Of a stretch of 64,000 nt of DNA, positions 28,417 through 47,615 are shown in pieces (the stretch's first letter is position 1; each line of letters begins with the position of its first letter). The stretch lies in the NCBI GenBank assembly GCA_014799395.1, contig JAAVID010000003.1:63105-127104 (forward strand), in the 5' to 3' direction. The translations under genes and the position numbers were made by a program. The notes beneath the pieces were generated by a model. That model was given only the letters and a program-made list of their open reading frames with translations. It did no database searches and was not told where the DNA came from. Source of the stretch: Oscillospiraceae bacterium. Its GTDB lineage: Bacteria; Bacillota; Clostridia; Oscillospirales; Ruminococcaceae.

Positions 28417-28425
28417 ATCATCACC

Positions 28426-29771: not shown

Positions 29772-29782
29772 TATTTACCCTC

Positions 29783-30283: not shown

Positions 30284-30500
30284 TGTTATCCTCCTTATCA
30301 GTTCTCCTGTTGAAATTCCCGACGGGATTTTCCGCCTCGCGACCGTTGGAGCTGATCTGCTTATCTCCGCCAAAGCTGACGATTGCACGGCACTCCTTGT
30401 GGGTGCACATGAAATACGTCACATTATACAGTCCGTTTATTATTTTTACCTCTGCGCCGCAGAACGGACACGGTTTCAAAGAAATTCTAGACTTCATCAT
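30273..30500 (-). CDS. Lar-family restriction alleviation protein
   Basis: LKPCPFCG..C...C..(W/F)NRR signature. Confidence 0.8.
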   Translation of the reverse strand: MMKSRISLKPCPFCGAEVKIINGLYNVTYFMCTHKECRAIVSFGGDKQISSNGREAENPVGNFNRRTDKEDNNGR

Positions 30501-31415: not shown

Positions 31416-31418
31416 ATT

Positions 31419-31685
31419 TTACGCTCCTATCCTGATTCGATTTTCCGTATCGCCCGGTTCGAGCGACCATGCGCGCTCCTGCTCCTCGCTGATATCCGCA
31501 CAGCCGCCCACAGCGAGCTTTCTACCTTTGTCGTGGCAGAACTTCCAGCAGCCCGCCAGCGTCAGCTTTTTGCCCTCGATATCCTCCTCGTTCATCGTGG
31601 TGAGGATAGGCTCAATATACGCGAGTGTGCGTTTCTCGAACGCTGTTTTTGCTTCTCCGAGTATCTTTCTTGTTTTATCTGTCAT
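31419..31685 (-). CDS. PcfK-like protein, probably truncated or fused
   Basis: KKLTLAGCWKFCHDKGRKLAVGGCADI; no PcfJ gene follows. Confidence 0.55.
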   Translation of the reverse strand: MTDKTRKILGEAKTAFEKRTLAYIEPILTTMNEEDIEGKKLTLAGCWKFCHDKGRKLAVGGCADISEEQERAWSLEPGDTENRIRIGA

Positions 31686-32518: not shown

Positions 32519-32648
32519 AAATTACGTATCACTCTCCTCTGAAAATCCAAAAACGGCAGAGTTGTCAATACTCATTACAAGCCCGTCAAGCGGCAGTGTG
32601 AACGCCTTTTTTTACGGCGTTCTTGCCGCATTTTTTTGAATTTTCCTA

Positions 32649-32765
32649 TTGACTTTTGAGCGGGAAAGTGATATAATATTTATAGGGTGATTTTGCAATC
32701 GATTGCAAAATGAATTTTTTCACTTTCCTGCTTTGTTCCCGCCGGCTTTGGCGGGGATTTTTTTA
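32649..32765 (+). promoter_or_regulatory. Antisense sigmaA promoter + terminator unit B
   Basis: TTGACT-17-TGaTATAAT (32649-32677); hairpin 32737-32757 plus T run. Confidence 0.7.
32693..32708. promoter_or_regulatory. Palindrome copy 4, just downstream of the unit B -10 box
   Basis: Perfect 20-bp palindrome 32691-32710. Confidence 0.7.
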
Positions 32766-33605
32766 TGCCTTTTCCGGGAAAAGACAACGCACGATCGACG
32801 TGCCGCCGAAATCGGTGAAATGCTCGCACTTAAAACAATGTTCTTGACAGACCGATGTCTTATATTTCGGACATTGCGCCCAGCTGCCGTTTTCTTTGTG
32901 CGTTTTTCCGCAGATCGGACACGGAAGCGGAAGCGTTTTTTCGCCTCGCGTTACCCTTTTCAACAAATAGTTGTAATATTCCTCGAGGAAACGCTTTAAC
33001 GCCGTTTCGCCTCCGTCAAAGCCCGCGCTGTACAGCTTGCCATCGAGGGCTCTCACGCCGAATATCTCTCGGTCCCCTATCTGTTTGCGACAAAGAGCGA
33101 TCTTTGAGAACTTCGCCTCGCCGCCCGGTTCTCTCGGCGGTGCAGCGCACGCGAATACCGTTTCCCACTCCGAAGTATTCGCCACGACTGCCGTTTTCGG
33201 CGGCTCGGGGGGCTCGTCCTGCGGAGCTTCGGGAATATTCTCCGGGTATCTTCTCGCCAGGTCGGCAAGCTCCGCGCCAAAGCCTTGACTTTCGCTGCCA
33301 AAGCTAATATTATATTTATCGCACAGCTTGTGCAGTTCGTTATATAAATCGCATTTCGGCTTATCTTTCGGCACGTCGGGAACTTCTTGAGACTGTATAT
33401 ACAATGGTTTCAAAAGGCTGAACTCCGTGCGTTCGCTGCCTTTTTTCAATATGTGGTTTATAGCCCTTTTTGCACCGACTTCACTTTTGTACCTATGCAC
33501 TCGGCTATCGAGCGTTCCCATAACAGGGCGATCATCCGAATCATCGCCATAATAATAAACATTATCCTTACTGTCATAAACTACCCATTTGTTTTCTATC
33601 AGCAT
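32763..33605 (-). CDS. Hypothetical protein with C-terminal Cys/His cluster
   Basis: ORF track; CPIC..H..C..C..HC..C. Confidence 0.7.
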   Translation of the reverse strand: MLIENKWVVYDSKDNVYYYGDDSDDRPVMGTLDSRVHRYKSEVGAKRAINHILKKGSERTEFSLLKPLYIQSQEVPDVPKDKPKCDLYNELHKLCDKYNISFGSESQGFGAELADLARRYPENIPEAPQDEPPEPPKTAVVANTSEWETVFACAAPPREPGGEAKFSKIALCRKQIGDREIFGVRALDGKLYSAGFDGGETALKRFLEEYYNYLLKRVTRGEKTLPLPCPICGKTHKENGSWAQCPKYKTSVCQEHCFKCEHFTDFGGTSIVRCLFPEKA

Positions 33606-33619
33606 TTTTCACACTCCTC

Positions 33620-34078
33620 TCAAAACGGATAATCGTCGCTGCCTGTGTCGGTAAAGTCGGGCGAAGGGGGCTTTGACTGCTGCGCCGTGGTGTTATTATT
33701 CGCGTACTGCGGAGGCTCTGGCGGCAATGGCGGCGGTTCTGGCGCGCTGCTTTTCTCGCCCGTAAAGCTAAGCCGTTCCGCCATTATCTCGTACCATGTC
33801 GCGGGGGTTCCGTTCTTGTCGGTGTACTGCCGCGTCTGCATTTCGCCCTCGACTAAGATCATTCTGCCCTTTGCGAAATATCTCACAACGAATTCCGCAG
33901 CCGCTCGCCACGCGACGACGTTAAAGAAATCCGTCTTTTTCTCCTCGCCCTTGACCTGATAATTGCGGTCAACGGCGATACGGAACGAGCAGACACTCAA
34001 GCCTGTCGGTGTGGTCTTTAATTCGAGATCGTTGCATATCCTGCCCATCATTATTACTTTGTTAAACATTGCTTTCAC
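33620..34078 (-). CDS. ssb: Single-stranded DNA-binding protein
   Basis: NKVIMMGR, FRIAVDR, KGRMILVEG, acidic DDYPF tail. Confidence 0.95.
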   Translation of the reverse strand: MKAMFNKVIMMGRICNDLELKTTPTGLSVCSFRIAVDRNYQVKGEEKKTDFFNVVAWRAAAEFVVRYFAKGRMILVEGEMQTRQYTDKNGTPATWYEIMAERLSFTGEKSSAPEPPPLPPEPPQYANNNTTAQQSKPPSPDFTDTGSDDYPF

Positions 34079-34343
34079 CGCCCTTTACATTGTCTTTTGG
34101 TTCGGGGAAAAGTTGAGCCTCGATTTTGTAAATCTTTTTTATCACCTCACAATAATTTGTTATGCGATTATACAGCTCAACACTTTCCTTAAGCGAATCC
34201 ATTGCGTTTAACGCCTTTTTAAAAATCGGCTCGATAGCCTTCCCGACGTATTCAGCAAATCCGTAAATAGCGCCTTTGAAACTTTTCGCCTCAATAATCA
34301 CGAATGAGTCATTAACGCCGTAAATAATTAAATATTCACACAT
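34062..34343 (-). CDS. Hypothetical protein
   Basis: ORF track. Confidence 0.6.
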   Translation of the reverse strand: MCEYLIIYGVNDSFVIIEAKSFKGAIYGFAEYVGKAIEPIFKKALNAMDSLKESVELYNRITNYCEVIKKIYKIEAQLFPEPKDNVKGGESNV

Positions 34344-34656
34344 TGCTCTTGCCGCCCTTTCCGCCCATTTTCGCGCCGCAATTTGGGCAAAATTTCGTTA
34401 CATACCACAACAGGTGTCCGCAGTCGGAACAACGAAATGTATCGTGCCTATCACCTTTGCAGCGGAATCGCTCCCACCGCCCGCGCCTTTCGGGGCGAAC
34501 ATCGGCAGCGGGAGCGTTTTCAACTATCCCAATAGCCTTGTTTAAACCTCTGTTTATTCCCTCGTTAACGTACAAATCGCCATCGGAGCTGATTAAATCA
34601 ATGAAACGGCTTTTTATTTCAGAGAGAACCTTTTCGCGCTCTATGCATTCAGCCAT
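34336..34656 (-). CDS. Hypothetical Zn-ribbon protein
   Basis: PAADVRPERRGRW, CSDCG, FCPNCGAKM. Confidence 0.75.
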   Translation of the reverse strand: MAECIEREKVLSEIKSRFIDLISSDGDLYVNEGINRGLNKAIGIVENAPAADVRPERRGRWERFRCKGDRHDTFRCSDCGHLLWYVTKFCPNCGAKMGGKGGKSNV

Positions 34657-34699
34657 TATTCCATCACCTCCACCCTCTCAAACTCGATAACCCACACCC
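34656..34699 (-). pseudogene. Gene remnant: only C-terminal VWVIEFERVEVME* survives
   Basis: Matches the (NP)WVWVIEFER tail of a common phage protein; no start or upstream body. Confidence 0.5.
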
Positions 34700-34711
34700 T
34701 CAGACCTCCCG

Positions 34712-35074
34712 CTATCTCTTGTAATAATCGCCGGTTCTGTAGGTGTTGTAATCGTTTTCCGTAACCTCGAACGTATATTCAACGATTTTGCCGTCCTTGT
34801 CGCCCTTGATCGTAAAGTAATAGGTCGCGGGGTGATATTCGATTACTGGCATAGTCATACCGTCGGAAATACGGCGATCCGTTGTTTTTGAATACGCTGC
34901 GTTGTAGTTTTTGTCAACAATAACGCCCTCGCTTATTCTATTGTGCTCGTTCGCTGTCACGCCGCATATAATCAGCGTCATCATAACAACAACTGCCGCG
35001 ATTATAAAAGTATGAAGTATGTTTTCTTTTATGATCGCGCCAATACTCGAGAGATATTTTTTCACTTTTTTCAT
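34712..35074 (-). CDS. Membrane-anchored hypothetical protein
   Basis: TM then EGVIVDK..Y. Confidence 0.7.
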   Translation of the reverse strand: MKKVKKYLSSIGAIIKENILHTFIIAAVVVMMTLIICGVTANEHNRISEGVIVDKNYNAAYSKTTDRRISDGMTMPVIEYHPATYYFTIKGDKDGKIVEYTFEVTENDYNTYRTGDYYKR

Positions 35075-35946
35075 TCCACGTCCTCCAAAGTAATCTGTCT
35101 GGGGTCGTCGCCGACCCACCAGCGCATAACGTCCTCGCCTGTTTCCCAGCTTGTGGGTAAATTGCGGCGTTTGCGTTCTTTAAGCATACGGTCAAAGGCT
35201 CTGACGTAATTCAAACGGTATTTGGGATATTTCGCGAAATCGGCTTTCATACCCTTGAAGCCCTGCATAGGGCAGCCGATACAACCGATACGCCCCTCGC
35301 CACATTGATACAATGGATTTGCATTACAGCTGTAATGATGAAGAAACTCCCATACATCATCATCTGACCAGTCAATGATCGGGTTTATCATGGTCGCAAT
35401 AGTACGGTAACAATACTCAACAAGCCGACGCGCGGGGTCGTTATCCATATTCATAACCAAGCCGCCCTTATCCGTCACACGGTAATCCGCGCCCATTTCT
35501 TCGGCGGCTTTTTGGGTAGTCTTAGGCTTGCCGAGAACCTTAACCAAATCAGAACTTTCGGCACGTGCGTGACTTTCCGCTTTGCGAACGCCCGTTATTT
35601 TCAAGCGACCTCGACCACCACGCTCTTTCAATTCCTCGCAACAGTAGCGAACCCAACGAGTTGGCGGCATTAACTTCTCGGGGATAAGCTCCCACATTGA
35701 TTTTTCGGGCTCGCTGATATCAACATTAGGTATCGACCTTACATAATAGACCGTTTCGGGCGCGTCTACCGTTGTAAGATTATGAACTATATCGTGCTTA
35801 ACGCCCGCGAGCGCGGCTAATATGCGTATGCAGTCGCTGTCCTTGCCGCCGCTGTAACAGAGATAATAACCCTTGCCGTCTCTCGGCTCGAATGATTTCA
35901 AATGCTTGATTGCACGGCGTTCCTTTTCTGCTAAACCGTCATTCAT
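35071..35946 (-). CDS. PAPS reductase family protein
   Basis: YSGGKDS, RYCCEELKE, GVRKAES.R, RIGCIGCPM. Confidence 0.9.
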   Translation of the reverse strand: MNDGLAEKERRAIKHLKSFEPRDGKGYYLCYSGGKDSDCIRILAALAGVKHDIVHNLTTVDAPETVYYVRSIPNVDISEPEKSMWELIPEKLMPPTRWVRYCCEELKERGGRGRLKITGVRKAESHARAESSDLVKVLGKPKTTQKAAEEMGADYRVTDKGGLVMNMDNDPARRLVEYCYRTIATMINPIIDWSDDDVWEFLHHYSCNANPLYQCGEGRIGCIGCPMQGFKGMKADFAKYPKYRLNYVRAFDRMLKERKRRNLPTSWETGEDVMRWWVGDDPRQITLEDVE

Positions 35947-35962
35947 CTCTTGACAAATCCTC

Positions 35963-36883
35963 CTATCCTTTATAATTCTTGAAATCAGGGCAGTTGCGGA
36001 ATATCTGCCGCCCGTTGCACCACCGCTGTAACCGCCGTATCTCGCGCGGAGCGGTTTCTTTTTGGTAGATCATCACATACGGATTATATCCAAGATCGCG
36101 CAGAGTGTATATACGATATAAATCCTCTTCGAGAGTGCTGTTGAAATTAGTCAATACATACACAGACCTACTTCGCTGCCCCTTTACCGTCGTAAGTTCC
36201 GCAAACCGTTTGAAATATTCGGTTAGATCATCTCCGGGATTATCCCATGCAAAGTGCAGCACTGGCGTTTTTACAGCGTTCAACAGCTTGATATTGTCGG
36301 GATTAGTTAATCTGATATCAAGCCCCTGCGTGAAGTCGATTTTAGCACTGCTGTCTGCCAGATCATGGAGTAACTGTTCGTGATTTGCACATGCGAGAAT
36401 GTTCGGATCAAGTAGCTTTATCAACCGCTGACCGCGCCAGAATTCCGAAAGCTCTGCGACCTGCCGTGAACAGCGTCCCTCTTTCTTCCCGACAATGCAG
36501 AATTCACACCCACGCGGACAACCCCGTGTCAGAAATCCGACCGCGAAATCATACTCGGGGTACAGATTGTAATCGGGATAAATATGCTCTATCTCTGGCG
36601 GCAACGGTGTATTTAGGCTCTCGTCAAAAATTTCCTTACCGTCCTTTATCGTGATACAGTAGCCCGTTCCGCCGCGACGCAATTCATCTGCGCGGACAGC
36701 GTACTCATTGTCAATATCCGCAGTAAAGCTAAACGTCTTGGACGAGTACACAAGATCGTATTCCTCCATAGGCGAGTACAGTGAAACACAATCGCCAAGC
36801 GATTTATGATATGCCGACAGTTTCATCAACGGTAGCGACGGAAAATTGTGGCAGTCGCTCCATAGACCGATTTTTGTTTGCAT
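35963..36883 (-). CDS. Radical-SAM-like Fe-S protein
   Basis: LTRGCPRGCEFC (CxxxCxxC); NFPSLPLMKLSAYHK N-terminus. Confidence 0.85.
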   Translation of the reverse strand: MQTKIGLWSDCHNFPSLPLMKLSAYHKSLGDCVSLYSPMEEYDLVYSSKTFSFTADIDNEYAVRADELRRGGTGYCITIKDGKEIFDESLNTPLPPEIEHIYPDYNLYPEYDFAVGFLTRGCPRGCEFCIVGKKEGRCSRQVAELSEFWRGQRLIKLLDPNILACANHEQLLHDLADSSAKIDFTQGLDIRLTNPDNIKLLNAVKTPVLHFAWDNPGDDLTEYFKRFAELTTVKGQRSRSVYVLTNFNSTLEEDLYRIYTLRDLGYNPYVMIYQKETAPREIRRLQRWCNGRQIFRNCPDFKNYKG

Positions 36884-36887
36884 TTAC

Positions 36888-36975
36888 TTGACAAATCGCC
36901 TCCTGTATGCTATAATAAAATTGTCTTATTAGGTTTGCCGCTTACCGAGTTCGCTCGGGGCGGCGTTTTTTATTT
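36888..36975 (+). promoter_or_regulatory. Antisense sigmaA promoter + terminator unit C
   Basis: TTGACA-17-TGcTATAAT (36888-36916); hairpin 36940-36968 plus T run. Confidence 0.7.
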
Positions 36976-37652
36976 TGTCCACTGGTTCGCCATTGCCTCG
37001 GCGATACCCGAAAAGGTTTTTGAACGTATTTTTGCAGTTAGAGGGTTATTCCAACCGATAATTTTACCAGTTTCATCTGTTGCATATAAAGCCGCGCCAG
37101 AATAAGCCTTACCACCTGAATATTTTTTATCGGGTACAACGATATTTGTAGGTTGCAATTTCGGCAAGCCTTTCAACCATAAACATGTTTTCTTACTTAC
37201 CTTGTGCCCGTATTCATAAGGCTGAATAATCTGATCCGCCTTTCGGTAATGAGTATTCATATAACCAATAGGGTTTTCAACAGCAATTTTATTACAATCA
37301 GCATTTATGAATTTCATAAAAAATTCCGCTGCTTTGTTGCGTTCTTTAAATCGCTGCAATGCTTTTCGCCGTATTTCTTCACATTAAACCACCTGTTTCC
37401 GCTTACTGTCAGATATGTACACGGCGGGTGCGCTATCAGCAAATCCCATTTTCCGTCGATTTTATGAACCGAGCCGTCCATTGTCGTAAACTCGCAGTTG
37501 CCGTTGATGATCGGCAGAACGTCGCCGAGAATATGCCATTTGGGGTGACCGCCCGACGGCTTCTGAATATCCGCGCTGTACGCCTCGTGACCGCGCTCGC
37601 GCATTGCTTTACACACCGTCTGGCTCTCCTCACATGCTATCAGTATCTTCAC
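36970..37652 (-). pseudogene. C5-cytosine DNA methyltransferase-like gene split by a frameshift
   Basis: ILIACEES and AHPPCTY in 37314-37652; IAVENPI, KKTCLWLKGLP, RSKTF in 36970-37359; shift at A4 run 37363-37366. Confidence 0.8.
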
Positions 37653-38059
37653 TGCTTGTCCTCCTTTAACGGTAATGTAGTCACATCGGGGAGTTCCGCG
37701 GTAACTTTAAGCATTTCCTCCCAATGTTTCCTAGTAAATTCAATCGAGCTTTTACCCGCTCCCGTTCTTCCGTGAGTAATGCGAACAAATCTATCATCAT
37801 CGCGGTCGTCGTCCTCCGTGAAGAATTCCACACCATCAATGATTAAGCGCTTTCCGTGACTGCGTTCACGCCATTTGTTCGTGCCATCGCTGCACGCTTT
37901 GAAGTACTCTGTTTGATAGTCCGCACCCTCTGTATAATCATCGTGTTCAAAATCCATGCACTCGCCACAACCTAATTCAATAGAAGCTCTCGTACAAGCG
38001 CCATTGCGATAATGCACGCATTTTGTCATATCACACTCTACCACTGTCATTATCATCAA
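37649..38059 (-). CDS. Hypothetical Cys-rich protein
   Basis: ORF track. Confidence 0.65.
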   Translation of the reverse strand: MMIMTVVECDMTKCVHYRNGACTRASIELGCGECMDFEHDDYTEGADYQTEYFKACSDGTNKWRERSHGKRLIIDGVEFFTEDDDRDDDRFVRITHGRTGAGKSSIEFTRKHWEEMLKVTAELPDVTTLPLKEDKQ

Positions 38060-38399
38060 CCTCCTCGAAAAATTCTCGCAAGCCGAGGATAACCATTCCG
38101 TCCTTGCAGAATTGCGGATTAGCCAGAATATACGTTATTGTGAACAGCTTGCAAGCTCCCGTATAATAGCCACCCTCAGCCTTGCGCGGCTCAGTGTTAT
38201 TTATAATCGCCGCGAACCTGCGAAACGGAGCAAAGAAATCAGTCATATCTTTCTCAAACTGCTCCTCGGGAATAAACTCGTTGACCGCAAGAATATCGCC
38301 GACCTCGTAAGGACGGTCGTTTTTGCGTACCTCAAAGGTTTTATCTCCTGCCGCCAGAGCGCTGTAATATTCGGGATATGCTTTAACTGCGTGAACCAT
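38031..38399 (-). CDS. DUF3850/ASCH-like protein
   Basis: HAVKAYPEYY..GDKTFEVRKNDRPYEVGD. Confidence 0.85.
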   Translation of the reverse strand: MVHAVKAYPEYYSALAAGDKTFEVRKNDRPYEVGDILAVNEFIPEEQFEKDMTDFFAPFRRFAAIINNTEPRKAEGGYYTGACKLFTITYILANPQFCKDGMVILGLREFFEEVDDNDSGRV

Positions 38400-38811
38400 T
38401 GTCGTCAGCTCCTTTCAGCAGCTCGGGATTATCATGGATATTGCCGATTATTTCGCATTCAGCGTTAAATACATCGGTACCGAATATATAGCTGTATACT
38501 CCGTCATTAACAACAAACGCTCCACTGTATCTGTCATATTCAACAAAACCGACAATGGTTTCCGAGCCATATTTGAACTTTATAATATCTTCTTCAAAAG
38601 AGAGTATATCATTCTTGTCGAGAAATCCTGTACATTCGCCGAGGGTTGAGGGGTCTACCCAATAACTTTCGTAGTCGCGTTCAACATAAACTTGTGCAGA
38701 ATTCAAATCGTCAACACCTTTGCCAGAACGATACGAAAGAAGTCCTGTCACCCAACCTTCGCCACTAATGCGCTTCCCACGCCAAAGCCCGCGCATATCA
38801 TTCATTGACAT
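38383..38811 (-). CDS. YopX family protein
   Basis: WRGKR..GWVTG..VDPSTLGECTG..DKND..EEDI..IGNIHDNPELL. Confidence 0.9.
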   Translation of the reverse strand: MSMNDMRGLWRGKRISGEGWVTGLLSYRSGKGVDDLNSAQVYVERDYESYWVDPSTLGECTGFLDKNDILSFEEDIIKFKYGSETIVGFVEYDRYSGAFVVNDGVYSYIFGTDVFNAECEIIGNIHDNPELLKGADDNGSRS

Positions 38812-39052
38812 CTTCGTCCACCTCGCTTTCGTCCTCGAATTCCAGATTTCGCCCCATAATCGTTCCGATCAGCATTAGGATAATACCTACAACGCCCTTT
38901 CCCAGCGCGAACCACAGTTCCTCGATTCCGTATGTAATACGCTGCTCGTTCAGATAGTCAAGGCGACCCATAGAGCATAATAACACTAAAATGCCAAACC
39001 AGAACAGAACGTTCGTGATGATAAGCCGACGCTTGGTTTGTTTTTCCGTCAT
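38798..39052 (-). CDS. Two-TM membrane protein
   Basis: Two hydrophobic segments. Confidence 0.7.
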   Translation of the reverse strand: MTEKQTKRRLIITNVLFWFGILVLLCSMGRLDYLNEQRITYGIEELWFALGKGVVGIILMLIGTIMGRNLEFEDESEVDEDVNE

Positions 39053-39720
39053 GGCTTTTCCTCCGCGCAATAATAGGATTTAAGCATTTTTATAATCTCT
39101 CCGCCGAATGCGTTCTCGGTCAATTTGATGAATTCCTCGACCGTCATACCGGAATCAAGATCAACGTCGTGTTCCTTTGCAAACTGGCTTCGACCCATTT
39201 CACATGAACCCGTGAGTTTGTTGTGCCAATCATAAAACAGCCTATTGGAATAGACCGTATTGGGCTTGAATTCCTCACAAAACACTTTGATACGCTCCTC
39301 AACGGGCATATCTGCGAAAAGCTTGTCGTTAAGCGCTGCCATGGCCTCGCGAAGCGTTTCGCCATGTGCAAAAGTATTACCGCGCTTGACTACATAACAT
39401 GGTGTGAGTGTCAAATCATCGTTTACGATCGCGCCTTTGGCACAATCCTTATGAACGCTATATATAATGGTTGCGACTCCATCTATATTATGTATCTTAT
39501 GTGAATTTAAAACAGCGCCGAATAAGGAGCCGGAGCCGTAGCCGTAGCCGTAGCCGTCGCCGGAGCCGTAGCCGTAGCCGGAGCCGTAGCCGTCGCCGGA
39601 GCCGTCGCCGGAGCCGGAGCCGTAGCCGGAGCCGGAGCCGGAGCCGTCGCCGGAGCCGGAGCCGTAGCCGTAGCCGGAGCCGGAGCAAACCTCGACAAAC
39701 TTTCGAATCATCTCTTCCAT
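39049..39720 (-). CDS. G-[S/Y/D] dipeptide-repeat protein with globular C-domain
   Basis: 26 G-x pairs then IDG..CYVVK..FAHGET..HNKLTGSCEMGR. Confidence 0.85.
   Translation of the reverse strand: MEEMIRKFVEVCSGSGYGYGSGSGDGSGSGSGYGSGSGDGSGDGYGSGYGYGSGDGYGYGYGSGSLFGAVLNSHKIHNIDGVATIIYSVHKDCAKGAIVNDDLTLTPCYVVKRGNTFAHGETLREAMAALNDKLFADMPVEERIKVFCEEFKPNTVYSNRLFYDWHNKLTGSCEMGRSQFAKEHDVDLDSGMTVEEFIKLTENAFGGEIIKMLKSYYCAEEKP
39527..39686. repeat. 6-nt tandem repeat array (GCCGTA/GCCGGA/GCCGTC)
   Basis: Directly visible. Confidence 0.95.
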
Positions 39721-40007
39721 ACTTTCACACCCTCAATAACATTGCGCGCTTTATCCGTTGCAGGAATGAGCTCGATAACGTCAAAAAGTCCCAAAGTCTC
39801 AACGGGCATAGTAAATTTGCAATTATTTGGTGCTACGGTTCCGTCAACCGCTATCTGAGATATCGAAGCCGCACCGTCCCACCACCAAAGGCGGCGAACA
39901 TCTTTCAGAATAACCGCCTGACCTTCGTGCTCTGCGACCGTGCCCGCAAAAACTCCGGCGCGATTAGACCTTACCACACAATACTTGTCCACAAAACTGA
40001 AATTCAT
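39708..40007 (-). CDS. DUF6948-like protein
   Basis: VVRSNRAGVFAG..RRLWWWDGAASISQIAVDG. Confidence 0.8.
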   Translation of the reverse strand: MNFSFVDKYCVVRSNRAGVFAGTVAEHEGQAVILKDVRRLWWWDGAASISQIAVDGTVAPNNCKFTMPVETLGLFDVIELIPATDKARNVIEGVKVWKR

Positions 40008-40041
40008 AATTTCCTCACTTTCCTTGCTTTCGCAAAACAAT

Positions 40042-40197
40042 TTATTGTTGATTTTCGCCCTTGTGGTCGGTGACGAGCCACGAGAGCGATACCTTGAACA
40101 CGTTCGCTACCATTGCCAATTCGGAGAACGTCCACAGTCTTGGATTTCGCTTGCGGCGGTTGTAGCAATCGCGTTTCATTCCGAGCTTGTCCGCCCT
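40042..40197 (-). pseudogene. N-terminally truncated XRE-type HTH gene
   Basis: ADKLGMKRDCYNRRKRNPRLWTFSELAMVANVFKVSLSWL with in-frame stops immediately upstream. Confidence 0.55.
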
Positions 40198-40215
40198 TTA
40201 AACTTCCTATTCAAA

Positions 40216-40413
40216 TTACTTCACGCCCCGAACCGCTTTTCGCGCCTCGTCCTCAGCCCATATTCTAGCAATATTATCCAGATGTTTCCGAATTTTTGCG
40301 GGATCGTGTTCAACGTAATTATCCGCTATATAACCTATAACTCGTCCGTTCTCATCGTAACAAGTCTGTACTATGTGCGGTTCATCAAGCGGCTTAATTC
40401 CTCTTTTTGCCAA
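40216..40413 (-). CDS. Small hypothetical protein
   Basis: GGAGG RBS, TTG start. Confidence 0.65.
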   Translation of the reverse strand: MAKRGIKPLDEPHIVQTCYDENGRVIGYIADNYVEHDPAKIRKHLDNIARIWAEDEARKAVRGVK

Positions 40414-40479
40414 ACGATCACCTCCCGATTCATTCTATGCAAAGACGGATTGTACAGTTTCCGCCGTCAGCATCATAGT

Positions 40480-40761
40480 CTACGCGTAGCCGCAGGTCGT
40501 TCCGATCTGCTCCCAGTAGTCGCCGTGGTTTCCGTATTTGTAGATCTCGCCGTGATGTGGTGTCTCCGCGATAACCGTTACCGTGCCCCACTCTTTGCAC
40601 ACCTTGACCTTGCTCAACGGCAGATCGCTGCCAATGTAGGTGTCTACCTTTTTGTCGCGGATAACCTTTATGAAGTCGCTAAGTATGACCTCGCGCGGGT
40701 TTTCTATCTTTTTGGGGAATGTTTCATTCATTAGGGTGTCCTCACTTTCCTTGCTTTTCAC
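40480..40761 (-). CDS. Hypothetical protein
   Basis: ORF track; start possibly 40731. Confidence 0.65.
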   Translation of the reverse strand: MKSKESEDTLMNETFPKKIENPREVILSDFIKVIRDKKVDTYIGSDLPLSKVKVCKEWGTVTVIAETPHHGEIYKYGNHGDYWEQIGTTCGYA

Positions 40762-40788
40762 CGACCTATGCGGTATAATAGTCGGCGT

Positions 40789-41113
40789 TTATAATACTTC
40801 CGTAAGAATGCGGAAATCCACGAAAGAGTTTTTGTCAATAGTAATTTCCACAGGTTTTCCAACAAGTTCGGAAACATAATTGACCTTTGCCGCTTTTAAA
40901 ATCTCCGCTACCTTTTCAACGGTAGATGTGATAGTTCCTTCACGACTATGTTCATTCCATTTACATGCGCTGGATATGTTAACGGTGTATTTCCCCCCGT
41001 CCATTACTCCAGAGCCGCTCATAGAAAAGCCCAACTGAATACCGATTAAGAAAGGATGGTCCTTAACAGTGCCGTACTCTGCAAAGTCGATTTTTCCTAA
41101 AACTTTTTCCATT
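40789..41113 (-). CDS. Hypothetical protein (MEKVLGKIDFAEYG...)
   Basis: GAGGTG RBS within repeat copy. Confidence 0.7.
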
Positions 41114-41222
41114 GGTCTCACCTCGCTTTCGTTTTGGGTTCAGCCGCTCGGGGGCGGTTAGGCTTTTCGTCTTGTATTTCACCGACCTTTGTGCTATAAT
41201 GAAAGCGAAAGGGGGTGAGTTT

Positions 41223-41405
41223 ATGGAAAAATCCTATTGTCCGTTAGTGGGCGGTGCCTGCCGCAAAGACTGTATGTTCCGCCTTTCCAATTCGGACGCG
41301 CTGGAGCTTAACAAGAAATGTCAGCTCTTTAAGGTCGTTGAGAATGTCGAGTATCTCATTGACCATGATATGCTTACAGATTGTCGTCAACATAGCGATC
41401 AATAA
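41223..41405 (+). CDS. Small Cys-containing moron protein (60 aa) with own promoter
   Basis: TTGTAT-17-TGcTATAAT at 41172-41200; GGGGGTG RBS. Confidence 0.75.
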   Translation: MEKSYCPLVGGACRKDCMFRLSNSDALELNKKCQLFKVVENVEYLIDHDMLTDCRQHSDQ

Positions 41406-41553
41406 TCTTTAATGCCTCATCGTATGCCACCGTCGTCGCGTGTAAAACGGTTGTTTCCAAATCCCTTATCAGCCACTTCACATCTTCAGCGGTGGCATTG
41501 TATTTTTTAAGAACCTGCAATATTTCTGTCACCGCTTTAATTCTGTCAGTCAC
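41374..41553 (-). CDS. Small hypothetical protein (59 aa, GTG start)
   Basis: GAGGTG RBS in repeat; overlaps the + strand gene tail-to-tail by 32 nt. Confidence 0.65.
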   Translation of the reverse strand: MTDRIKAVTEILQVLKKYNATAEDVKWLIRDLETTVLHATTVAYDEALKIIDRYVDDNL

Positions 41554-41597
41554 GCTCTCACCTCGCTTTCGTTTTGGGTTCAGCCGCTCGGGGGCGG

Positions 41598-41816
41598 TTA
41601 GGCGGTTGCGGGTTCGCTCTTGGTGAAGAGGTAGATGAAATCCATCTCGGGGAAAAGATTGATTTTTATGTTCATAGCCTGTTCAACCGTGAACCCACAC
41701 TCCGAGCGCCCATTGATCTTCGATCTGAATGTCGGCTCGGGTATTCCCGTCGCGGCTGCCGCCGCAGTTACCGATATTCCTTTTCTTTTCAGTTCCCTGC
41801 TAAGATTTTCGTACAT
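41598..41816 (-). CDS. Cro-like HTH regulator
   Basis: MYENLSRELKRKGIS..AAATGIPEPTFRSKING..FTVEQAMNI. Confidence 0.88.
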   Translation of the reverse strand: MYENLSRELKRKGISVTAAAAATGIPEPTFRSKINGRSECGFTVEQAMNIKINLFPEMDFIYLFTKSEPATA

Positions 41817-42060
41817 TCTAACACTTCCTTTCTTAAATTGTGTCCGCATTTGCGGACTTTGTACATTCATTATATCCCATTTTGCGTACATTGTCAAGTG
41901 GTTTTGTACAAATTTGCGTACTTTCTCCATTTTGTACATAAATGCGTTGATTTTTTGTACATTTGTACAGTTTTGCGTACATTTCTTATATAACGCGCGG
42001 AAATGTATTGACATTCGGATTTTTATATGGTATAATCATAAATAGTAAGGGGGTATTTAA
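41817..42060. promoter_or_regulatory. Lysis/lysogeny switch with divergent promoters and operators
   Basis: Repeated TGTAC..TGCGTAC half-palindromes; TTGACA..TATAAT toward cI at ~42008-42036. Confidence 0.8.
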
Positions 42061-42429
42061 TTGGGCTTTGGAAAGAAACTAGAGGAAAAAATGTCCGCAA
42101 AAGGCTTGAAACAAGCCGATATAGTCAGAGCGACGGGCATTTCAAAAACAACGTTAAGCAGCATGATCAGCCGAGATAATACAAAGGTTGATGTAGAAAT
42201 GTTTATCCGTATCTGCGATTTGCTTGAATGCGATCCTATGGATTTTGCAAGTGAAGTCCGACAAACGGCTAAAGAACCGGCTATGTATACCGCCGACCAA
42301 GAATATGTGATAGAAACTATGAATGAACTGAATGAGGACGGTATGAAAGAGCTGGTCAACTACTGCGAATTTCTGCGAATGAAAGGGTGCTTTAAAAAAG
42401 TGCCCGATAAGAATGCTTCCGAGGCGTAA
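42061..42429 (+). CDS. CI-like XRE repressor without peptidase domain
   Basis: LKQADIVRATGISKTTLSSMI HTH; divergent from cro; 122 aa. Confidence 0.88.
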   Translation: MGFGKKLEEKMSAKGLKQADIVRATGISKTTLSSMISRDNTKVDVEMFIRICDLLECDPMDFASEVRQTAKEPAMYTADQEYVIETMNELNEDGMKELVNYCEFLRMKGCFKKVPDKNASEA

Positions 42430-42481
42430 ATAAAAAAGCCGCTCCAAGGAGCGGCAAATAACATCTGAGGAGAACGACAAA

Positions 42482-43396
42482 ATGAACAAATCGAAAAAAG
42501 CACTTTTGGCGGCGCTGTTTTGCGCTGCGGTTTTAAGCGGTTGTACGCCTGGGGAAACTTCGGGCTCAAATATAAGCACAAGCTCCGATAACTCAACATC
42601 TTCAAGTTCCGAGCAGTCATCAAGCACAAAATCCGAGGAAAGCTCAACGGACAGCGAACCAGCTCCCGAAAGCTCCGTCCCCGTTAAAGAGGCAAATATA
42701 AAAGTCGCGTCCTGGAAACTGTCAACGGATTACAGCGGCAAGGACGTGCTCGTTATTGAATACGAATGGACGAACACTAAGGACGATACCGCGAACTTTA
42801 TGACAACGTTCATTGATAAGGTCTACCAGAACGGTGTCGAGTGCGACAGTGGCGTTATAGGCTGTGATGATGTTGACTCCCAAAAGCAGATGAACGACAT
42901 CAAGCCCGGAGTTACTTACAATGTAGCGGTCGGTTATCTGCTCCAGGATAAAACCAATGTGAATGTTGTTGTAAATGAATTCCTCGGCGACGAGCTGTTG
43001 AACGAGACTATCGAGCTTGGCGGCGGCGAGGGTGCGGCTCCCGGCGGAGAGATCGCCGAGACTTCGATCAAGATCGCAAACCATTCGATTTCAAAGGATT
43101 TTGAGGGTGCCGACGTGCTTGTTGTAAATTACGAGTTCTACAACGGCGAGGACAGCGCAAAAGGGTTCAGCTTTATGTTTACCGATAAGGCGTTCCAGAA
43201 CGGCGTAGAATGCGACAGCACGGTCATAGGCTGTGATGAAGTCGACGTTCAGACGCAGCTCAACGAGATACAACCCGGGGTAACGTATACGGTGTCCGTC
43301 GGGTATCACATTGAGGATATGTCCGAGGTGGAGATCGAGGTAAAGGATTTGTTCGGTACTAAGGATTATCTGAACGAGAAGATTTCTCTTTCGTAA
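42482..43396 (+). CDS. Lipoprotein with two DUF5067-like domains
   Basis: Lipobox LSGC, Ser-rich linker, duplicated (Y/F)QNGVECD..IKPGVTY.V.VGY. Confidence 0.8.
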   Translation: MNKSKKALLAALFCAAVLSGCTPGETSGSNISTSSDNSTSSSSEQSSSTKSEESSTDSEPAPESSVPVKEANIKVASWKLSTDYSGKDVLVIEYEWTNTKDDTANFMTTFIDKVYQNGVECDSGVIGCDDVDSQKQMNDIKPGVTYNVAVGYLLQDKTNVNVVVNEFLGDELLNETIELGGGEGAAPGGEIAETSIKIANHSISKDFEGADVLVVNYEFYNGEDSAKGFSFMFTDKAFQNGVECDSTVIGCDEVDVQTQLNEIQPGVTYTVSVGYHIEDMSEVEIEVKDLFGTKDYLNEKISLS

Positions 43397-43401
43397 ACAA
43401 T

Positions 43402-43431
43402 AAGCGGCTGTTCGTTATCAAAACAGCCGCT
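43402..43431 (+). terminator. Hairpin terminator after lipoprotein gene
   Basis: agcggctgtt..aacagccgct. Confidence 0.6.
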
Positions 43432-43433
43432 CT

Positions 43434-43449
43434 TTGCAATTGATTGCAA
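43434..43449. promoter_or_regulatory. Palindrome copy 5, abutting ATG of TM2-HIRAN gene
   Basis: TTGCAATTGATTGCAA ends 2 nt before the 43451 start. Confidence 0.7.
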
Positions 43450-43450
43450 A

Positions 43451-44542
43451 ATGACTTTTGAGGAGATTTACAAAATGACCGATAAAAATAAAACGCTGAC
43501 ATTGATATTGTGTGTGCTTTTCGGCTATCTCGGTATGCACCGCTTTTATGTAGGAAAAAATAAATCGGGAATAGTATGGCTTTTGACAGGCGGGCTTTGC
43601 GGAATAGGCTGGATTATTGATATAATTTTAATATGCACGGATAAGTTTGACGGGGTTACGGGAACGCAAAACACATCTGTATCTCAACCTATCCAACAAC
43701 CTTTACAATCGAAGAGCGCGTCCATACCGCAACCTGTTCAACCGCCAACTGCTCCGATGCAGGAAACGGTTCAGGTGCAAACACCACAGCCGCAAGCCGC
43801 TCCGATACCGAAAGCTGTTCAAGTGCAAATACCACAGCCGCAAACTGCTCCAATACCTAAAGCCGTTCAAGCACAAGTACCACAGCAGCAAGCTGCTCCG
43901 ACTTTGGTTTCCACCTATGTGCCTATGCCCTGCTTTTTACCGATCACCGACGGCAAGGGGTTAAAATACGAGTATGAAAACGATTTGTGCATGATAAATA
44001 CTACAGCGGCGGAGCTTAACGCAGAATTGGGTGGAGAGGTCACGTTCAAGCAAGAACCCGAAAACGCCAATGACGCAAACGCGGTCGCAGTATGGCAGAA
44101 CGAACGCAAGCTCGGCTATATCTATCGCGGACAAAGTCAAGAAATGGCTAACCGTTGGTTGAAAAGCAACGATCCATTAATGGGATTTATAAGCCACGTG
44201 GATATTGTGCAGAATAAGGTCAAGTACAAAATCGGATTTTACAGACCGCTTGAGGAAATGGAAAAGGGTAAATTCAAGCTCGCGGGTATACGGCAAAAGG
44301 ATAATTTAGGCGATCTGCGGCAGGATAATTTAGAATGCTGCAAAGAGGGAGAGACGCTTTCAATTGAGTTCGACGACGAAACGGAAAAATATATCGTTTG
44401 GGGCGGTGGCGGCGAAATCGGCGTGCTGCCGAAAAAAGCAGAAGATTTTCTCGGTTCAAAAGACAGAGCCGTCGGCATTCTGACAAAAATGGAGTGTGAC
44501 GATGACGGCAAATATAACGCCGAGGTTGAAGTGTATATATAA
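43451..44542 (+). CDS. TM2 (NINE) membrane protein + P/Q repeat linker + tandem HIRAN-like domains
   Basis: FGYLGMHRFYVGK..GIVWLLTGGLCGIGWIID; EPENANDANAVAVW..KLGYI; second repeat GEIGVLPK. Confidence 0.8.
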   Translation: MTFEEIYKMTDKNKTLTLILCVLFGYLGMHRFYVGKNKSGIVWLLTGGLCGIGWIIDIILICTDKFDGVTGTQNTSVSQPIQQPLQSKSASIPQPVQPPTAPMQETVQVQTPQPQAAPIPKAVQVQIPQPQTAPIPKAVQAQVPQQQAAPTLVSTYVPMPCFLPITDGKGLKYEYENDLCMINTTAAELNAELGGEVTFKQEPENANDANAVAVWQNERKLGYIYRGQSQEMANRWLKSNDPLMGFISHVDIVQNKVKYKIGFYRPLEEMEKGKFKLAGIRQKDNLGDLRQDNLECCKEGETLSIEFDDETEKYIVWGGGGEIGVLPKKAEDFLGSKDRAVGILTKMECDDDGKYNAEVEVYI

Positions 44543-44551
44543 CACAATATC

Positions 44552-44567
44552 TTGCAATCGATTGCAA
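44552..44567. promoter_or_regulatory. Palindrome copy 6, 21 nt upstream of integrase ATG
   Basis: TTGCAATCGATTGCAA. Confidence 0.7.
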
Positions 44568-44588
44568 AACCACATTTGAGGTGATATA

Positions 44589-46172
44589 ATGGAACGCTAC
44601 GCAATGTACCTCCGCAAATCCCGAGCCGATCTGGACGCGGAGGCTCACGGCGAGGGCGAAACCCTCGCCCGGCACAAAGCCGCTTTGCTTGCATTAGCAA
44701 AGCGGCTGAATTTAACGGTCTCGGAAATATATCAGGAGATCGTATCAGGTGAAACAATAGCCGCTCGTCCGATGATGCAGCAGCTCCTCCAGGAGGTCAG
44801 TGAAGGAAAATGGACGGGAGTTATCGTAATGGAAGTTGAACGTCTCGCCCGCGGTGATACTATGGACCAGGGTTTTGTTTCGCAGACATTCAAATACAGT
44901 GGAACGAAAATCATCACACCGCTGAAAATATACGATCCGTCCAACGAATTCGACGAGGAATATTTTGAATTCGGTCTGTTTATGAGCCGCCGCGAATATG
45001 TCACTACAAACCGCCGCCTACAACGCGGACGCGCCGCCTCTGCCCGTGAGGGTAAATTTGTAGGAAGTATCGCTCCGTTTGGATATAAGCGCAAAAAAAT
45101 CGAAAACGACAAGGGATATACTCTTGAAATAGTTCCGGAGCAAGCGGAGATCATCAAAATGATTTTTGACTTCTACGTCAACGGTACAGATGTTAACGGC
45201 GAACACAAGCGACTTGGTTTTCAAGCAATCGCACGCAAGCTCAACGAGCTGAAAATTCCGCCAATACGTCACGACTATTGGCAAAAGGAATCCATCAAAG
45301 ATATCATAACAAATCCCACATATGCCGGAATGATACGCTGGGGATACCGCAAAGTAAAGAAAACGGTCACTCCGCAGGGAAAGAAAACGTCGCGCCCGAT
45401 AACATTGGACGATAATTGCATCATAGCCAAAGGGTTACATGAGGCTATAATTCCGAAAGATATATTCGACAGAGCTCAGGAATTTCTTGCAGAACAGCCG
45501 TCACCACCGGTCGGATATAAAAGCGAGATTAAAAATCCTCTGTGCAGTCTTGTCATTTGTGCGAAATGCGGTCGAAAAATGGTGCTAAGGCGCGGCACGG
45601 ACAAAAAGCCGGATTACATTGTATGTCACGCGCGCTCTTGTACGGTAGTATCAACTCCGCTTTATTTGGTTGAAGATCGTGTGCTTAATATTTTAAAACA
45701 ATGGGCGAATGACTATGAAGTAATCTCAAAGAATATGGATCTACAATTCGGAGCCAATATTGCCGATTATACGACGGTCAGCGAAAATCTTCAACAAGAG
45801 TTAAACGTTCTTGAACGCCAACAGCGCACGATATATGACCTTGTCGAACGCGGATTGTACACCGACGAGGAATTTAAAAAACGAATTACCGAAATCAAAC
45901 AGCGCATAGAAAATGCCAAAAACGGCTTAAAAAAGCTTGGTCTCGATAGAGAAATAGTGGAGAGAAGAAAAAAAGCAATTGAAGAATTCGCTCCAAAGGT
46001 CGAACATATCCTTGAGATATACTCCACTCGAACGTCTGCCGCCGCCAAAAACGAGATACTGAAAGAGGTACTTGAACGTGTTGTATATGATAAAGAAAAA
46101 AGCGGCGCGCTCAAGGGCTGTTCAGCAGATGATTTTACGCTGATTGCATATCCCAAATTGCCAAAACTATGA
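44589..46172 (+). CDS. Large serine recombinase (prophage integrase)
   Basis: YLRKS catalytic Ser, ERLARGD, recombinase domain, Zn ribbon CAKCG..C, coiled coil. Confidence 0.96.
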   Translation: MERYAMYLRKSRADLDAEAHGEGETLARHKAALLALAKRLNLTVSEIYQEIVSGETIAARPMMQQLLQEVSEGKWTGVIVMEVERLARGDTMDQGFVSQTFKYSGTKIITPLKIYDPSNEFDEEYFEFGLFMSRREYVTTNRRLQRGRAASAREGKFVGSIAPFGYKRKKIENDKGYTLEIVPEQAEIIKMIFDFYVNGTDVNGEHKRLGFQAIARKLNELKIPPIRHDYWQKESIKDIITNPTYAGMIRWGYRKVKKTVTPQGKKTSRPITLDDNCIIAKGLHEAIIPKDIFDRAQEFLAEQPSPPVGYKSEIKNPLCSLVICAKCGRKMVLRRGTDKKPDYIVCHARSCTVVSTPLYLVEDRVLNILKQWANDYEVISKNMDLQFGANIADYTTVSENLQQELNVLERQQRTIYDLVERGLYTDEEFKKRITEIKQRIENAKNGLKKLGLDREIVERRKKAIEEFAPKVEHILEIYSTRTSAAAKNEILKEVLERVVYDKEKSGALKGCSADDFTLIAYPKLPKL

Positions 46173-46199
46173 GAACAATAACTGTAAAGCCGCATTATC

Positions 46200-46250
46200 T
46201 CTATAGATGTTAACGTGTGTGTTCTGTTTCATCGGCGCACTCTCCGCTGA
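46200..46250. other. Hybrid att site (prophage right junction) inside asnB
   Basis: asnB homology ends after GAT GAA (46228-46233); next codons ETEHTR* are phage-derived. Confidence 0.8.
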
Positions 46251-47358
46251 GCGCCACGGGAAAGCCCGCGTTCTTGATCTCGCGGCAGAACAGCCACAGC
46301 GAGCTGTCAACGTCCGCCATTCCGGGGAGATCGCGCGCGTACGTCGAATCGTTCAGCGCCTCGGCGAGCGCGGGAGTATCCAGCACGACATTGGTGTGCT
46401 CCGAGCCGATAAACCTTGCCATTTCCTCTACATACGGCGCGTCCTCGTCGGGCTGAAACGCGCTTGCCTTGAAGTTCTCGCGGTTGTTCTTGTAATCTAT
46501 CGAAAACGTATGCAGGCGCTCGCCGCGCTTGGCGAATTCCGCCGCCGCTATCGCAGAGATGACCGAGCTGTCCAGCCCTCCCGACAGGAACGTACACAGC
46601 GGCACGTCGCTTACGAGCTGACGTTTCACAGCGTCGAAAATAAGCTCGCGGACGCGGCTCGCGGTCTCGGTGAAGCTCTCGTTGTGCGGGGAAGCCGTCA
46701 GTTTCCAGTAGCGCTTTACGGTCATTCCTTTGCGCGAGAACTCGGCGCAGTGCGCCGCGGGAATGTCGTGTATATCGCGGAACACGCCGCCGCCGACTAT
46801 CCGCGCGGGACCTATAAGCATTATCTCCGCCGCGCCCTCCTCGGTTATCACGGGCTTGACCCCGGGGTGCTTCAAAAGCGCCTTTATCTCGCTCGCGAAC
46901 ACCAGACCGTTCTCCGTTTCCGCGTAGAACAGCGGCTTTACGCCTATCCTGTCGCGGGCGAGGAACAGCGTCTGTTCGCTCCTGTTCCAGACCGCAAACG
47001 CGAAGATGCCGTTGAACATTTCAAGACACTTCTCGCCGTACTCGGCGTAGGCTTTCAGCACCACCTCGGTATCGGAATGTCCGAGGAAACGGTAACCGCG
47101 CTTTTCGAGCCCTCCGCGTATCTCCGTGGTGTTGTACAGCTCGCCGTTGTAGACGAGCGTGAGGTCTCCGAAGGTCATGGGCTGAGCGCCGTTTTCGGGG
47201 TCGATTACGATAAGCCGCCTGTGCGCGAGACAGACGTGCTCATGCTCGAAAAATCCGTCCGCGTCGGGTCCGCGCGGCGTAAGCGCACGGCTCATCTCGC
47301 GTATTATTTCGTTATTGATCTGCGTTCTGAAATTGATCTCTCCTGCAATTCCGCACAT
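46210..47358 (-). pseudogene. asnB: 5' part of glutamine-hydrolysing asparagine synthetase (AsnO-like), interrupted by prophage
   Basis: MCGIAG, RGPD, HRRL, LSGGLDSS, ARDLPGMADVDSSL, ends at SGECADE; full-length enzymes are ~600 aa. Confidence 0.92.
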
Positions 47359-47615
47359 AATGATCGCTCCTTTCGTGCTGCATTATATGCGTTTTCCGGA
47401 AATTTGACAGCGCGTTTATTCGTCGTTTTCCGACGGCAAAAAGTCCCAAAAATTTTACATAAATTCAAAATTGCGGCTATGACTTTGTGCAAGTTGCCTA
47501 TTGAAAACGATTAACTTTTGTGGTATTATATACATAAAGAACAAAAACGATCTGTCTATATTTCAAATGACAGACCAAAAAGCGTTTTCGTCAATTTTAT
47601 TAGGAGGCGAACACC

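Follow-up and report, generated by a model that had tools for sequence, protein, structure and literature searches.

Gene-intervening elements that leave the chromosome of the mother cell have been described in sigK, spsM, gerE, spoVFB, spoVR and yabG, chiefly in Bacillus and otherwise in a small number of pathogenic clostridia. Here we describe a 46.8-kb prophage that splits an AsnO-type glutamine amidotransferase gene in an Oscillospiraceae bacterium, and compare it with these systems. The DNA analysed is a 64,000-nucleotide stretch of the source genome, hereafter the window (G000:C3:63105-127104, where G000 is the source genome and C3 its contig). The window holds most of the prophage, the recombinase at its right end and the 5′ fragment of the split gene, and the 3′ half of the gene lies just to the left of the window on the same contig.

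SPβ is a seemingly complete temperate phage that splits the mother-cell gene spsM and carries a large serine recombinase (LSR) at one end. The small factor is encoded in the early operon by sprB; this gene has a σE/σK promoter of its own 20 nt upstream, and on induction a distant σA promoter reads it as well (PMC4191935). The element in the window likewise looks like a complete temperate phage and has an LSR at one end; a candidate small factor with a σE/σK-type motif near its start lies in the early operon, and the target is a putative mother-cell gene. It differs from SPβ in its target (an AsnO-type gene instead of spsM) and in its host (a gut member of the Oscillospiraceae); moreover, the small open reading frame (ORF) has no family similarity, and the evidence comes from sequence only.

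The skin elements in sigK (SpoIVCA/Skr in B. subtilis, CD1231/CD1234 in C. difficile) and the C. perfringens phage PhiS63 are also LSR elements inside a mother-cell gene; PhiS63 is a functional sigK-intervening phage, and C. tetani prophages likewise lie in sigK (PMC5553647). In our locus, by contrast, the target encodes an enzyme and not a sigma factor, and elements at the same codon range from a whole phage down to 2.4 kb. CD1234 of the C. difficile skin element is a 72-aa protein without database relatives, and is made from a σE promoter whose transcription start lies 14 nt ahead of the start codon; its partner recombinase is expressed constitutively (PMC5025042). The gin element in gerE of Bacillus cereus ATCC 10987 (GirC/GirX) is a non-phage LSR island in a sporulation gene (PMC5595907). 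It resembles the 2.4–6 kb cargo-bearing elements of L044, L041 and G203 described below, whereas the element of the source genome is a prophage, and the gene, the recombinase lineage and the phylum branch differ. Finally, the Listeria comK prophage (A118/phi10403S), the case of 'active lysogeny', is an LSR phage in a host gene that is restored by excision, but its cue is phagosome escape and the process is reversible in a living cell, whereas the motifs in our locus point to a terminal mother cell. No report of an asparagine-synthetase-family gene as the target of an intervening element was found in the searchable literature.

Anatomy of the split gene and its recurrence

The 5′ fragment of the AsnO-type gene (46210..47358, minus strand; ORF 47358-46210) encodes 382 residues, starts with MCGIAG and ends with ..ALSGECADE followed by TEHTR and a stop. 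Residues 1–377 come from the host (47358-46228), while the five codons for TEHTR and the stop come from the phage. The fragment matches GATase_7 and positions 2-130 of the Asn_synthase hidden Markov model (HMM), together with positions 1-366/517 of TIGR01536. In the 2.76-Mb, 112-contig assembly, PF00733 occurs as exactly two pieces, HMM 2-130 in the 5′ fragment and HMM 130-354 at G000:C3:61856-62527(-), ~0.6 kb left of the window start. The latter belongs to the 3′ half of the gene (C3:61,832-62,528, minus strand), in which the reading frame at the far junction is ..HVCSC|EIFGGYPWYH..VK*, with 230 residues on to the stop. A scripted join of the host flanks yields a 607-aa protein in one open frame, which aligns end to end with an intact 607-aa orthologue from the same genus with 78% identity and one gap. 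The joined protein has the features of a class II amidotransferase, including Cys2 (in the MCGIAG start), GATase_7 and PF00733, the last split 2-130 / 130-354. The split of the gene by the element is far beyond chance, and the anatomy, a precise split with two intact halves, is certain.

The LSR gene (44589..46172, plus strand) encodes a 527-aa integrase with the three domains PF00239 Resolvase, PF07508 Recombinase and PF13408 Zn_ribbon_recom, and matches the PHROG 95 integrase with E=4.5e-100. It points towards the 5′ half of the split gene, with its stop 56 bp from the last host base. The protein is 36–46% identical to integrases of cultured phages of spore-formers; the integrase of PhiS63 shows 37% identity, and integrases of C. 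tetani prophages are also found within its relatives. A preliminary description of this DNA had placed the end of asnB homology at ..SGECADE with phage DNA beyond it, had counted ~55 bp between the integrase stop and the gene, and had expected a 3′ half starting from IFGGYP at the other junction. All of this agrees with the present mapping, the 3′ half being located 46,807 bp away, to the left of the window.

On the gene strand, the two junctions read GCGCCGATGA|AACAGAACAC and GTTCTTGTGA|GATATTCGGC. Comparison of the two junctions in the source genome and in G203, L041, G174 and L044 places the crossover core, TGA on the gene strand, at 46229..46231 of the integrase-side junction, with the host arm running from 46232 upwards and the phage arm from 46228 downwards. 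The predicted empty site is ..GCCGATGA joined to GATATTCGG.., and the rebuilt attP shows dyad symmetry at 17 of 24 positions; both this symmetry and the small common core TGA are attachment-site features expected of an LSR. The G+C content is ~0.44–0.48 inside the element and 0.55–0.57 outside. Junction mapping, the G+C step and phage genes delimit an element of 46,807 bp (G000:C3:~62,529-109,332), with its left end ~577 nt before base 1 of the window and positions 1..46228 of the window inside it.

The preliminary description had also suggested looking for elements at the same codon in relatives of the host, and such elements recur. We examined the best 80 LSR relatives in species-representative genomes and the best 80 in viral contigs. 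About 20 of the former adjoin a gene half that ends or starts exactly at residue 377|1 (LSR identity at least ~51%), and four of the latter show the same split (50–55% LSR identity). The gene is split at this codon by related LSR elements in more than 20 other genomes, with elements ranging from 2.4 to 47 kb, that is, from mini-elements to whole prophages. Specifically, the element is 6 kb long and carries metH-like cargo in G203 (Ruminococcus sp. UBA1366), is 5.7 kb long with other cargo in L041, and in L044 (Oscillospiraceae UBA11209) is reduced to 2.4 kb, consisting of the LSR and two small ORFs only. The LSRs of the mini-elements, the 2.4-kb element included, retain all three domains. The related loci come from Oscillospiraceae, Ruminococcus or Clostridia metagenome-assembled genomes (MAGs) of mouse, goat, rabbit and human gut. 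In addition, 6 of the ~68 orthologues in a sample of 301 genomes of the same family are split.

The ~25 gene halves, which share 43–87% identity, contain no stop and no frameshift, and the ratio of nonsynonymous to synonymous substitution rates (dN/dS) between split copies is 0.10–0.16. Elements that have lost every phage gene yet combine an intact LSR with intact gene halves are what selection on both excision and the rebuilt gene would be expected to leave.

Several same-codon loci have features of their own. The 2.4-kb element of L044 encodes a 56-aa cysteine-rich DUF1540 protein (L044 1478-1648, minus strand). Where the LSR lies beside the 3′ half (L022 1489-1503, L044 3761-3775), the phage arm repeats 12–13 bp of the host arm (..TGTGCTGATGAA), so that the 3′ half opens with an in-frame ATG or GTG (MCADE|IFGG, MCANE|IFGG). 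In G174, the LSR adjoins the 3′ half, on another contig. The phage-type arm of its 5′ junction (L015 = G174:C16:16000-30798, 1150-7000) is dyad-symmetric with the arm of the 3′ junction (L022, G174:C180), and tsaD-, mreB- and CCA-adding-enzyme-like genes lie within 150 bp of the 5′ junction, representing either housekeeping-like cargo in the element or a rearranged region.

The gene is also split at a second site, ..MATLL[DE]|RKDRMSM.., by another LSR lineage in G300 and G012, and G281 is probably a third case. Two members of this lineage are 39% identical; G300 belongs to the same genus as the source genome, and its element is 4.4 kb long. In that mini-element, a 40-aa ORF overlaps the LSR start (ATGA) at ~5420-5543 of L017 (G300:C24), and is possibly a coupled partner of the second-site recombinase.

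The source genome itself has two further LSR genes. One belongs to the second-site lineage (L243, G000:C6:22000-34000, positions 3516-7702), and is 39% identical to the G300 enzyme. It lies beside the gene for a 611-aa protein and an ORF of 144 aa; a CATATATT box is present upstream. The 144-aa ORF resembles the C-terminal part of a polysaccharide deacetylase; this LSR was considered as the splitter of a deacetylase gene and rejected, as no 5′ half is seen nearby. The other encodes 556 aa (L244, G000:C29, positions 8245-9915, minus strand) and has AAC-N16-GCATAAATT ~100 nt upstream.

The target gene, its promoter boxes and the host

In the 301 family genomes, the 5′ half matches two clades, one with 45–75% identity in ~68 genomes and one with 30–39% identity in many more, and the source genome holds only the former. 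The tree separates these as an AsnO-like and an AsnB-like clade (support 96/95 and 99/95), with the motifs SGECADE[IL]FGGYPW and SGEGADE.FGGYN[IV]Y, respectively. The AsnO-like clade includes a 615-aa paralogue from a Neobacillus MAG, which bears SGECADEIFGGYPWF and shows 52% identity to the intact orthologue of G051 and 49% to the joined protein of the source genome. The 633-aa paralogue of the same MAG falls in the AsnB-like clade. B. subtilis AsnO and AsnB are 614 and 632 aa long, and the motifs of the 615-aa Bacillaceae protein match those typical of AsnO, which is a lead and not a test. A homologous-protein search made to name the clade returned only close relatives. The closest solved structure is that of hydroxyamidotransferase 7YLZ (431 bits, versus 159 bits for E. 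coli AsnB).

The Neobacillus-labelled MAG has two relevant loci (L045 and G301:C692:5428-7266). It contains an intact AsnO-like gene and, in addition, a 4.7-kb contig on which a same-clade LSR adjoins the first 32 residues of a 3′ half; this contig either represents a second copy of the gene or was mis-binned.

In B. subtilis, AsnB amidates meso-diaminopimelate (mDAP) in peptidoglycan, and AsnO and AsnH are dispensable for growth (PMC5485061). B. subtilis asnO belongs to the σE regulon, is activated by SpoIIID and can be read by σK, and its mutant sporulates poorly (PMC517825). The protein of the source genome resembles B. subtilis AsnO in the clade-level signature (SGECADEIFGGYPW, LLDRKDRMSM) and in length class. 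It differs in that asparagine for translation is an unlikely product in this host, and orthology runs via the Bacillaceae MAG paralogue only. No AsnA was found in the source genome, and no asparaginyl-tRNA synthetase (AsnRS) above the curated cut-off (best score 89.8 versus 342.6 bits), while GatB is present (548 bits). The gene content indicates that Asn-tRNA is most likely made by transamidation (GatCAB), with no use for free asparagine in translation. The enzyme would then not be needed for growth, which would explain the tolerance of the split and would make a specialised role likelier than asparagine supply; asparagine supply is, for the same reason, doubtful as its function.

The box CATATAAT lies 23 nt upstream of the ATG of the split gene (47382..47389, minus strand) and is identical to the σK −10 element of the C. 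difficile sigK P2 promoter (PMC3789822). The −10 element of C. difficile promoters is common to σE and σK; at −35, σE promoters have ATA and σK promoters AC (PMC3789822). CATAnnnT occurs within 150 nt upstream of the start in 34 of 39 orthologues versus 7 of 20 paralogues (Fisher p=7e-5), and at −70 to −15 in 26 of 39 versus 2 of 20 (p=3e-5). The full AC-N15-18-CATAnnnT is found in 20 of 39 orthologues and in none of the 20 paralogues (p=3e-5). The genome-wide background of the same three features upstream of genes of the source genome is 15%, ~6% and 3%, respectively. The comparison suggests that orthologues of the AsnO clade carry a σK/σE-type, and thus mother-cell-type, promoter (AC-N17-CATAnnnT) that the paralogues lack. 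A strict promoter regular expression run over the source genome gave too few matches to validate a regulon, and the spoIVA upstream region has no box within 260 nt.

NCBIfam models detect Spo0A, adjacent SigE and SigG, a SigF-like factor, the N-terminal part of SigK, and SpoVT in the source genome. SpoIVA is also present, as is a SpoIIID homologue (106 bits, TIGR02844) that regular-expression searches had missed. By its gene content, the host is an endospore former. Two expectations of the preliminary description hold up here: the host has spo0A and sigE, together with the rest of the core sporulation set, and the gene groups (96/95) with the 615-aa Bacillaceae paralogue on the AsnO-like side instead of falling in the housekeeping AsnB clade, in a tree made without B. 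subtilis proteins. Within the family, SpoIVA is present in 265 of 301 genomes, and more often in carriers of the AsnO-like clade (67 of 69) than in the others (198 of 232; p=0.006); the assemblies of the two carriers without it are 78% and 83% complete. The spoIIID promoter of the source genome reads TCATA-N16-CATAATAT, with GGACAA/TTGTCC boxes on its flanks. This is, to judge from the motifs, the σE pattern with SpoIIID autoregulation known from C. difficile, which gives the motifs a positive control from the same genome.

The sigK gene of the source genome spans two contig ends that overlap by 101 nt (C111:1-473, C9:1-294). The first 144 nt recur, apart from one mismatch, on a third contig (C110:1-144), which continues with unrelated genes. 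This branch could reflect a strain variant, or it could mark the junction of a skin-like element that only some of the population carries. A split of sigK by an element was considered, and no second junction was found among the contigs of the source genome.

The candidate directionality factor and the proposed excision

The early leftward operon of the prophage contains a 65-aa ORF with a TTG start (40216..40413, minus strand), 4.2 kb from the integrase gene, which is a candidate recombination directionality factor. Homologous small ORFs occur in L031, L035, L037, L040, L041 and L044, and in the mini-elements of L044 and L041 (2.4–6 kb) the small ORF is among the few things retained besides the LSR. 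An HMM built from seven members finds the small ORF at 43 of the 83 loci from genomes and at 40 of the 80 from viral contigs. It is 57–66 aa long and nearly always lies 0.1–3.3 kb upstream of the LSR, on the opposite strand. The 65-aa ORF has no match in Pfam, PHROGs or a tblastn search of phage records.

A two-block promoter-like motif followed by a ribosome-binding site (RBS) precedes the 65-aa ORF (40432..40458, minus strand). Specifically, AC at 40458-40457 is followed by the SpoIIID-box-like TGTACAAT at 40456-40449 and by CATAGAAT at 40439-40432, the whole reading AAC-TGTACAAT-CCGTCTTTG-CATAGAAT, then 18 nt including the RBS, then TTG. The CATAGAAT box therefore ends 18 nt before the start, to be compared with the 20 nt of sprB in SPβ. 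The small ORF of L031 has CATACAAT at the corresponding place, and many other small-ORF loci have (k)(m)ATAGGACAA-N11-12-(C/A)ATAnnnT. The pattern G[GT]ACA-N9-15-[ACG]A[TA]A...T is found at 23 of 43 small-ORF loci, whereas 1.8% of the regions upstream of host genes contain it. The B. subtilis SpoIIID box, WWRRACAR-Y, is compatible with ATAGGACAA. In C. difficile, the SpoIIID consensus is KRTAACARK, and the box at CD1234 is TGTAACAAT (PMC5025042). CD1234 thus combines a σE promoter with TGTAACAAT, as the small ORF of the source genome combines TGTACAAT with CATAGAAT. The arrangement, a candidate directionality factor behind a putative mother-cell-type promoter, mirrors CD1234 and sprB.

We propose that a temperate phage integrated via its LSR into a mother-cell-expressed AsnO-type gene at the ..GECADE|IFGGY.. 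codons. The gene would be silent and unnecessary in growing cells, so that the lysogen would bear no cost. During sporulation, RNA polymerase with σE or σK, probably together with SpoIIID, would transcribe the gene for the 65-aa protein, and this protein, as a directionality factor, would act with the recombinase to recombine the two junctions in the terminally differentiating mother cell. The 46.8-kb element would thereby be removed and the 607-aa open reading frame restored, and the gene would be expressed from its own σK-type promoter, while the prophage would be retained in the forespore chromosome. Since the 65-aa gene also lies in the early lytic operon, it would drive excision on induction too, following the logic of sprB. 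We infer which sigma factors read the motifs, what the 65-aa protein does and that excision takes place in the mother cell; on balance, we consider it probable that the prophage is excised in the sporulating mother cell to rebuild the AsnO-type gene, in the manner of SPβ, skin and gin.

Several observations weigh against excision in the mother cell. No contig with an attB or attP junction is present in the assembly of the source genome, and an exact 22-nt search of viral contigs found no free attP. LSR phages often integrate into genes without a developmental role. The promoter of the split gene has a good match at −10 only, its −35 region (GTCAAA) being imperfect, and the box is absent in 5 of 39 orthologues, including the intact gene from the same genus. 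Because CATAnnnT contains the σA-like TAnnnT, sigma factors are assigned here by nucleotide motif alone. The motif ahead of the 65-aa ORF may be a phage operator instead, and the ORF belongs to no known family, its role being assigned from synteny and from retention in mini-elements. Finally, the AsnO label of the 615-aa Bacillaceae paralogue comes from its length and motifs, with B. subtilis AsnO outside the tree.

Some of these data would suit ordinary lysogeny, in which a conserved stretch of the gene is merely convenient as attB, the host can do without the gene in the gut, the gene stays broken while the prophage is present, and excision comes on lytic induction only. Many LSR phages integrate inside genes, the assembly shows no excision product, and loss of the gene may cost little where free asparagine is not needed for translation. 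However, ordinary lysogeny leaves unexplained that both halves are intact in more than 20 genomes, including those with elements that have no phage gene at all, that mother-cell-type boxes occur on the target clade and not on its paralogue, and that the CATAnnnT/GGACAA motif is conserved at the LSR-linked small ORF. We therefore regard it as unlikely, though as a serious competitor.

An excision switch that responds to a cue other than sporulation, such as stress or the host niche, and that works reversibly and without lysis as in the comK phage, is highly improbable. The recombinase gene is separate from the small ORF, so any signal acting on the small ORF could control excision, and LSRs can re-integrate. 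However, the boxes on the target gene and on the small ORF are both of mother-cell type, and the gene clade tracks SpoIVA. Least probable of all is an old insertion that left a dead pseudogene pair, with the mini-elements as decaying immobile remnants: a truncated methyltransferase in the early region of the prophage and the existence of elements with cargo genes only would fit, but the ~25 halves free of stops and frameshifts, the low dN/dS of 0.10–0.16 and the three domains kept by the LSR even in a 2.4-kb element argue against it.

A wider reading, which we offer tentatively and as a whole, is that the AsnO-type gene is developmentally rearranged across gut and rumen Oscillospiraceae and related Clostridia, that two of its sites have been colonised by LSR lineages unrelated to each other, that the 57–66-aa ORFs form a new and widespread family of factors wired to SpoIIID and σE/σK, and that in hosts without AsnRS the enzyme is a mother-cell amidotransferase with another substrate, e.g. 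in the spore envelope. If this were true, hundreds of LSR elements of Clostridia would have one mother-cell excision module in common. If our main reading holds, that of excision in the sporulating mother cell, intervening elements would have a new target gene, and the phenomenon would extend to abundant uncultured gut commensals. The graded series at one codon, from a whole phage to a 2.4-kb unit, would show phage domestication, and the candidate factor family, with its recognisable promoter signature, would allow the timing of excision to be predicted from sequence. The locus also raises the question of what AsnO-type enzymes do in sporulation in a host unable to charge tRNA with free asparagine. 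In addition, sets of LSR, attachment site and directionality factor are of practical interest as recombination tools.

Remaining prophage genes and neighbouring observations

The gene content identifies the element, in outline, as a tailed temperate phage of siphovirus type, with terminase, portal, major head, tape measure, lysin and a lysogeny module. The late genes (3287..19763, minus strand; PHROGs 9, 12, 10, 58 and 15001) include, by PHROG match, the terminase large subunit (18123-19763), the portal (16487-17749), the major head protein (14579-15766), a 1089-aa tape measure protein (8706-11975) and the endolysin (3287-4570), all on the minus strand. The early/replication region (28426..37359, minus strand) contains genes, again on the minus strand, for a replication initiator (31682-32518) and the single-stranded DNA-binding protein SSB (33620-34078). 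The methyltransferase gene of the region (36970-37359, minus strand) is a fragment, aligning with just the C-terminal half of its family, so that at least one early gene of the prophage is truncated. This region also has a tyrosine-recombinase-like gene (28426-29448, minus strand; Phage_integrase with a SAM-like N-terminal domain), which sits in the middle of the element although a serine integrase is already present at the prophage end.

The lysogeny module begins with a Cro/CI-type helix-turn-helix protein (42061..42429, plus strand; Pfam HTH_26), which is likely the prophage repressor. Divergent from it, a 138-aa ORF (41598-42014, minus strand) is the first gene of the early operon. Between the repressor and the integrase, Pfam matches reveal a DUF5067 lipoprotein (42482-43396, plus strand) and a TM2+HIRAN protein (43451-44542, plus strand).

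Outside the element, the host gene just downstream of the split gene encodes a 260-aa phosphotransferase of the APH family, with a CotS-like fold (L001 392-1174, minus strand; G000:C3:60747-61529). Inside it, a 223-aa ORF of the early region (39049-39720, minus strand) consists mostly of GSGSGDGSGSGY repeats, and the opposite strand (39471-40073, plus) reads as RSRSRS repeats.

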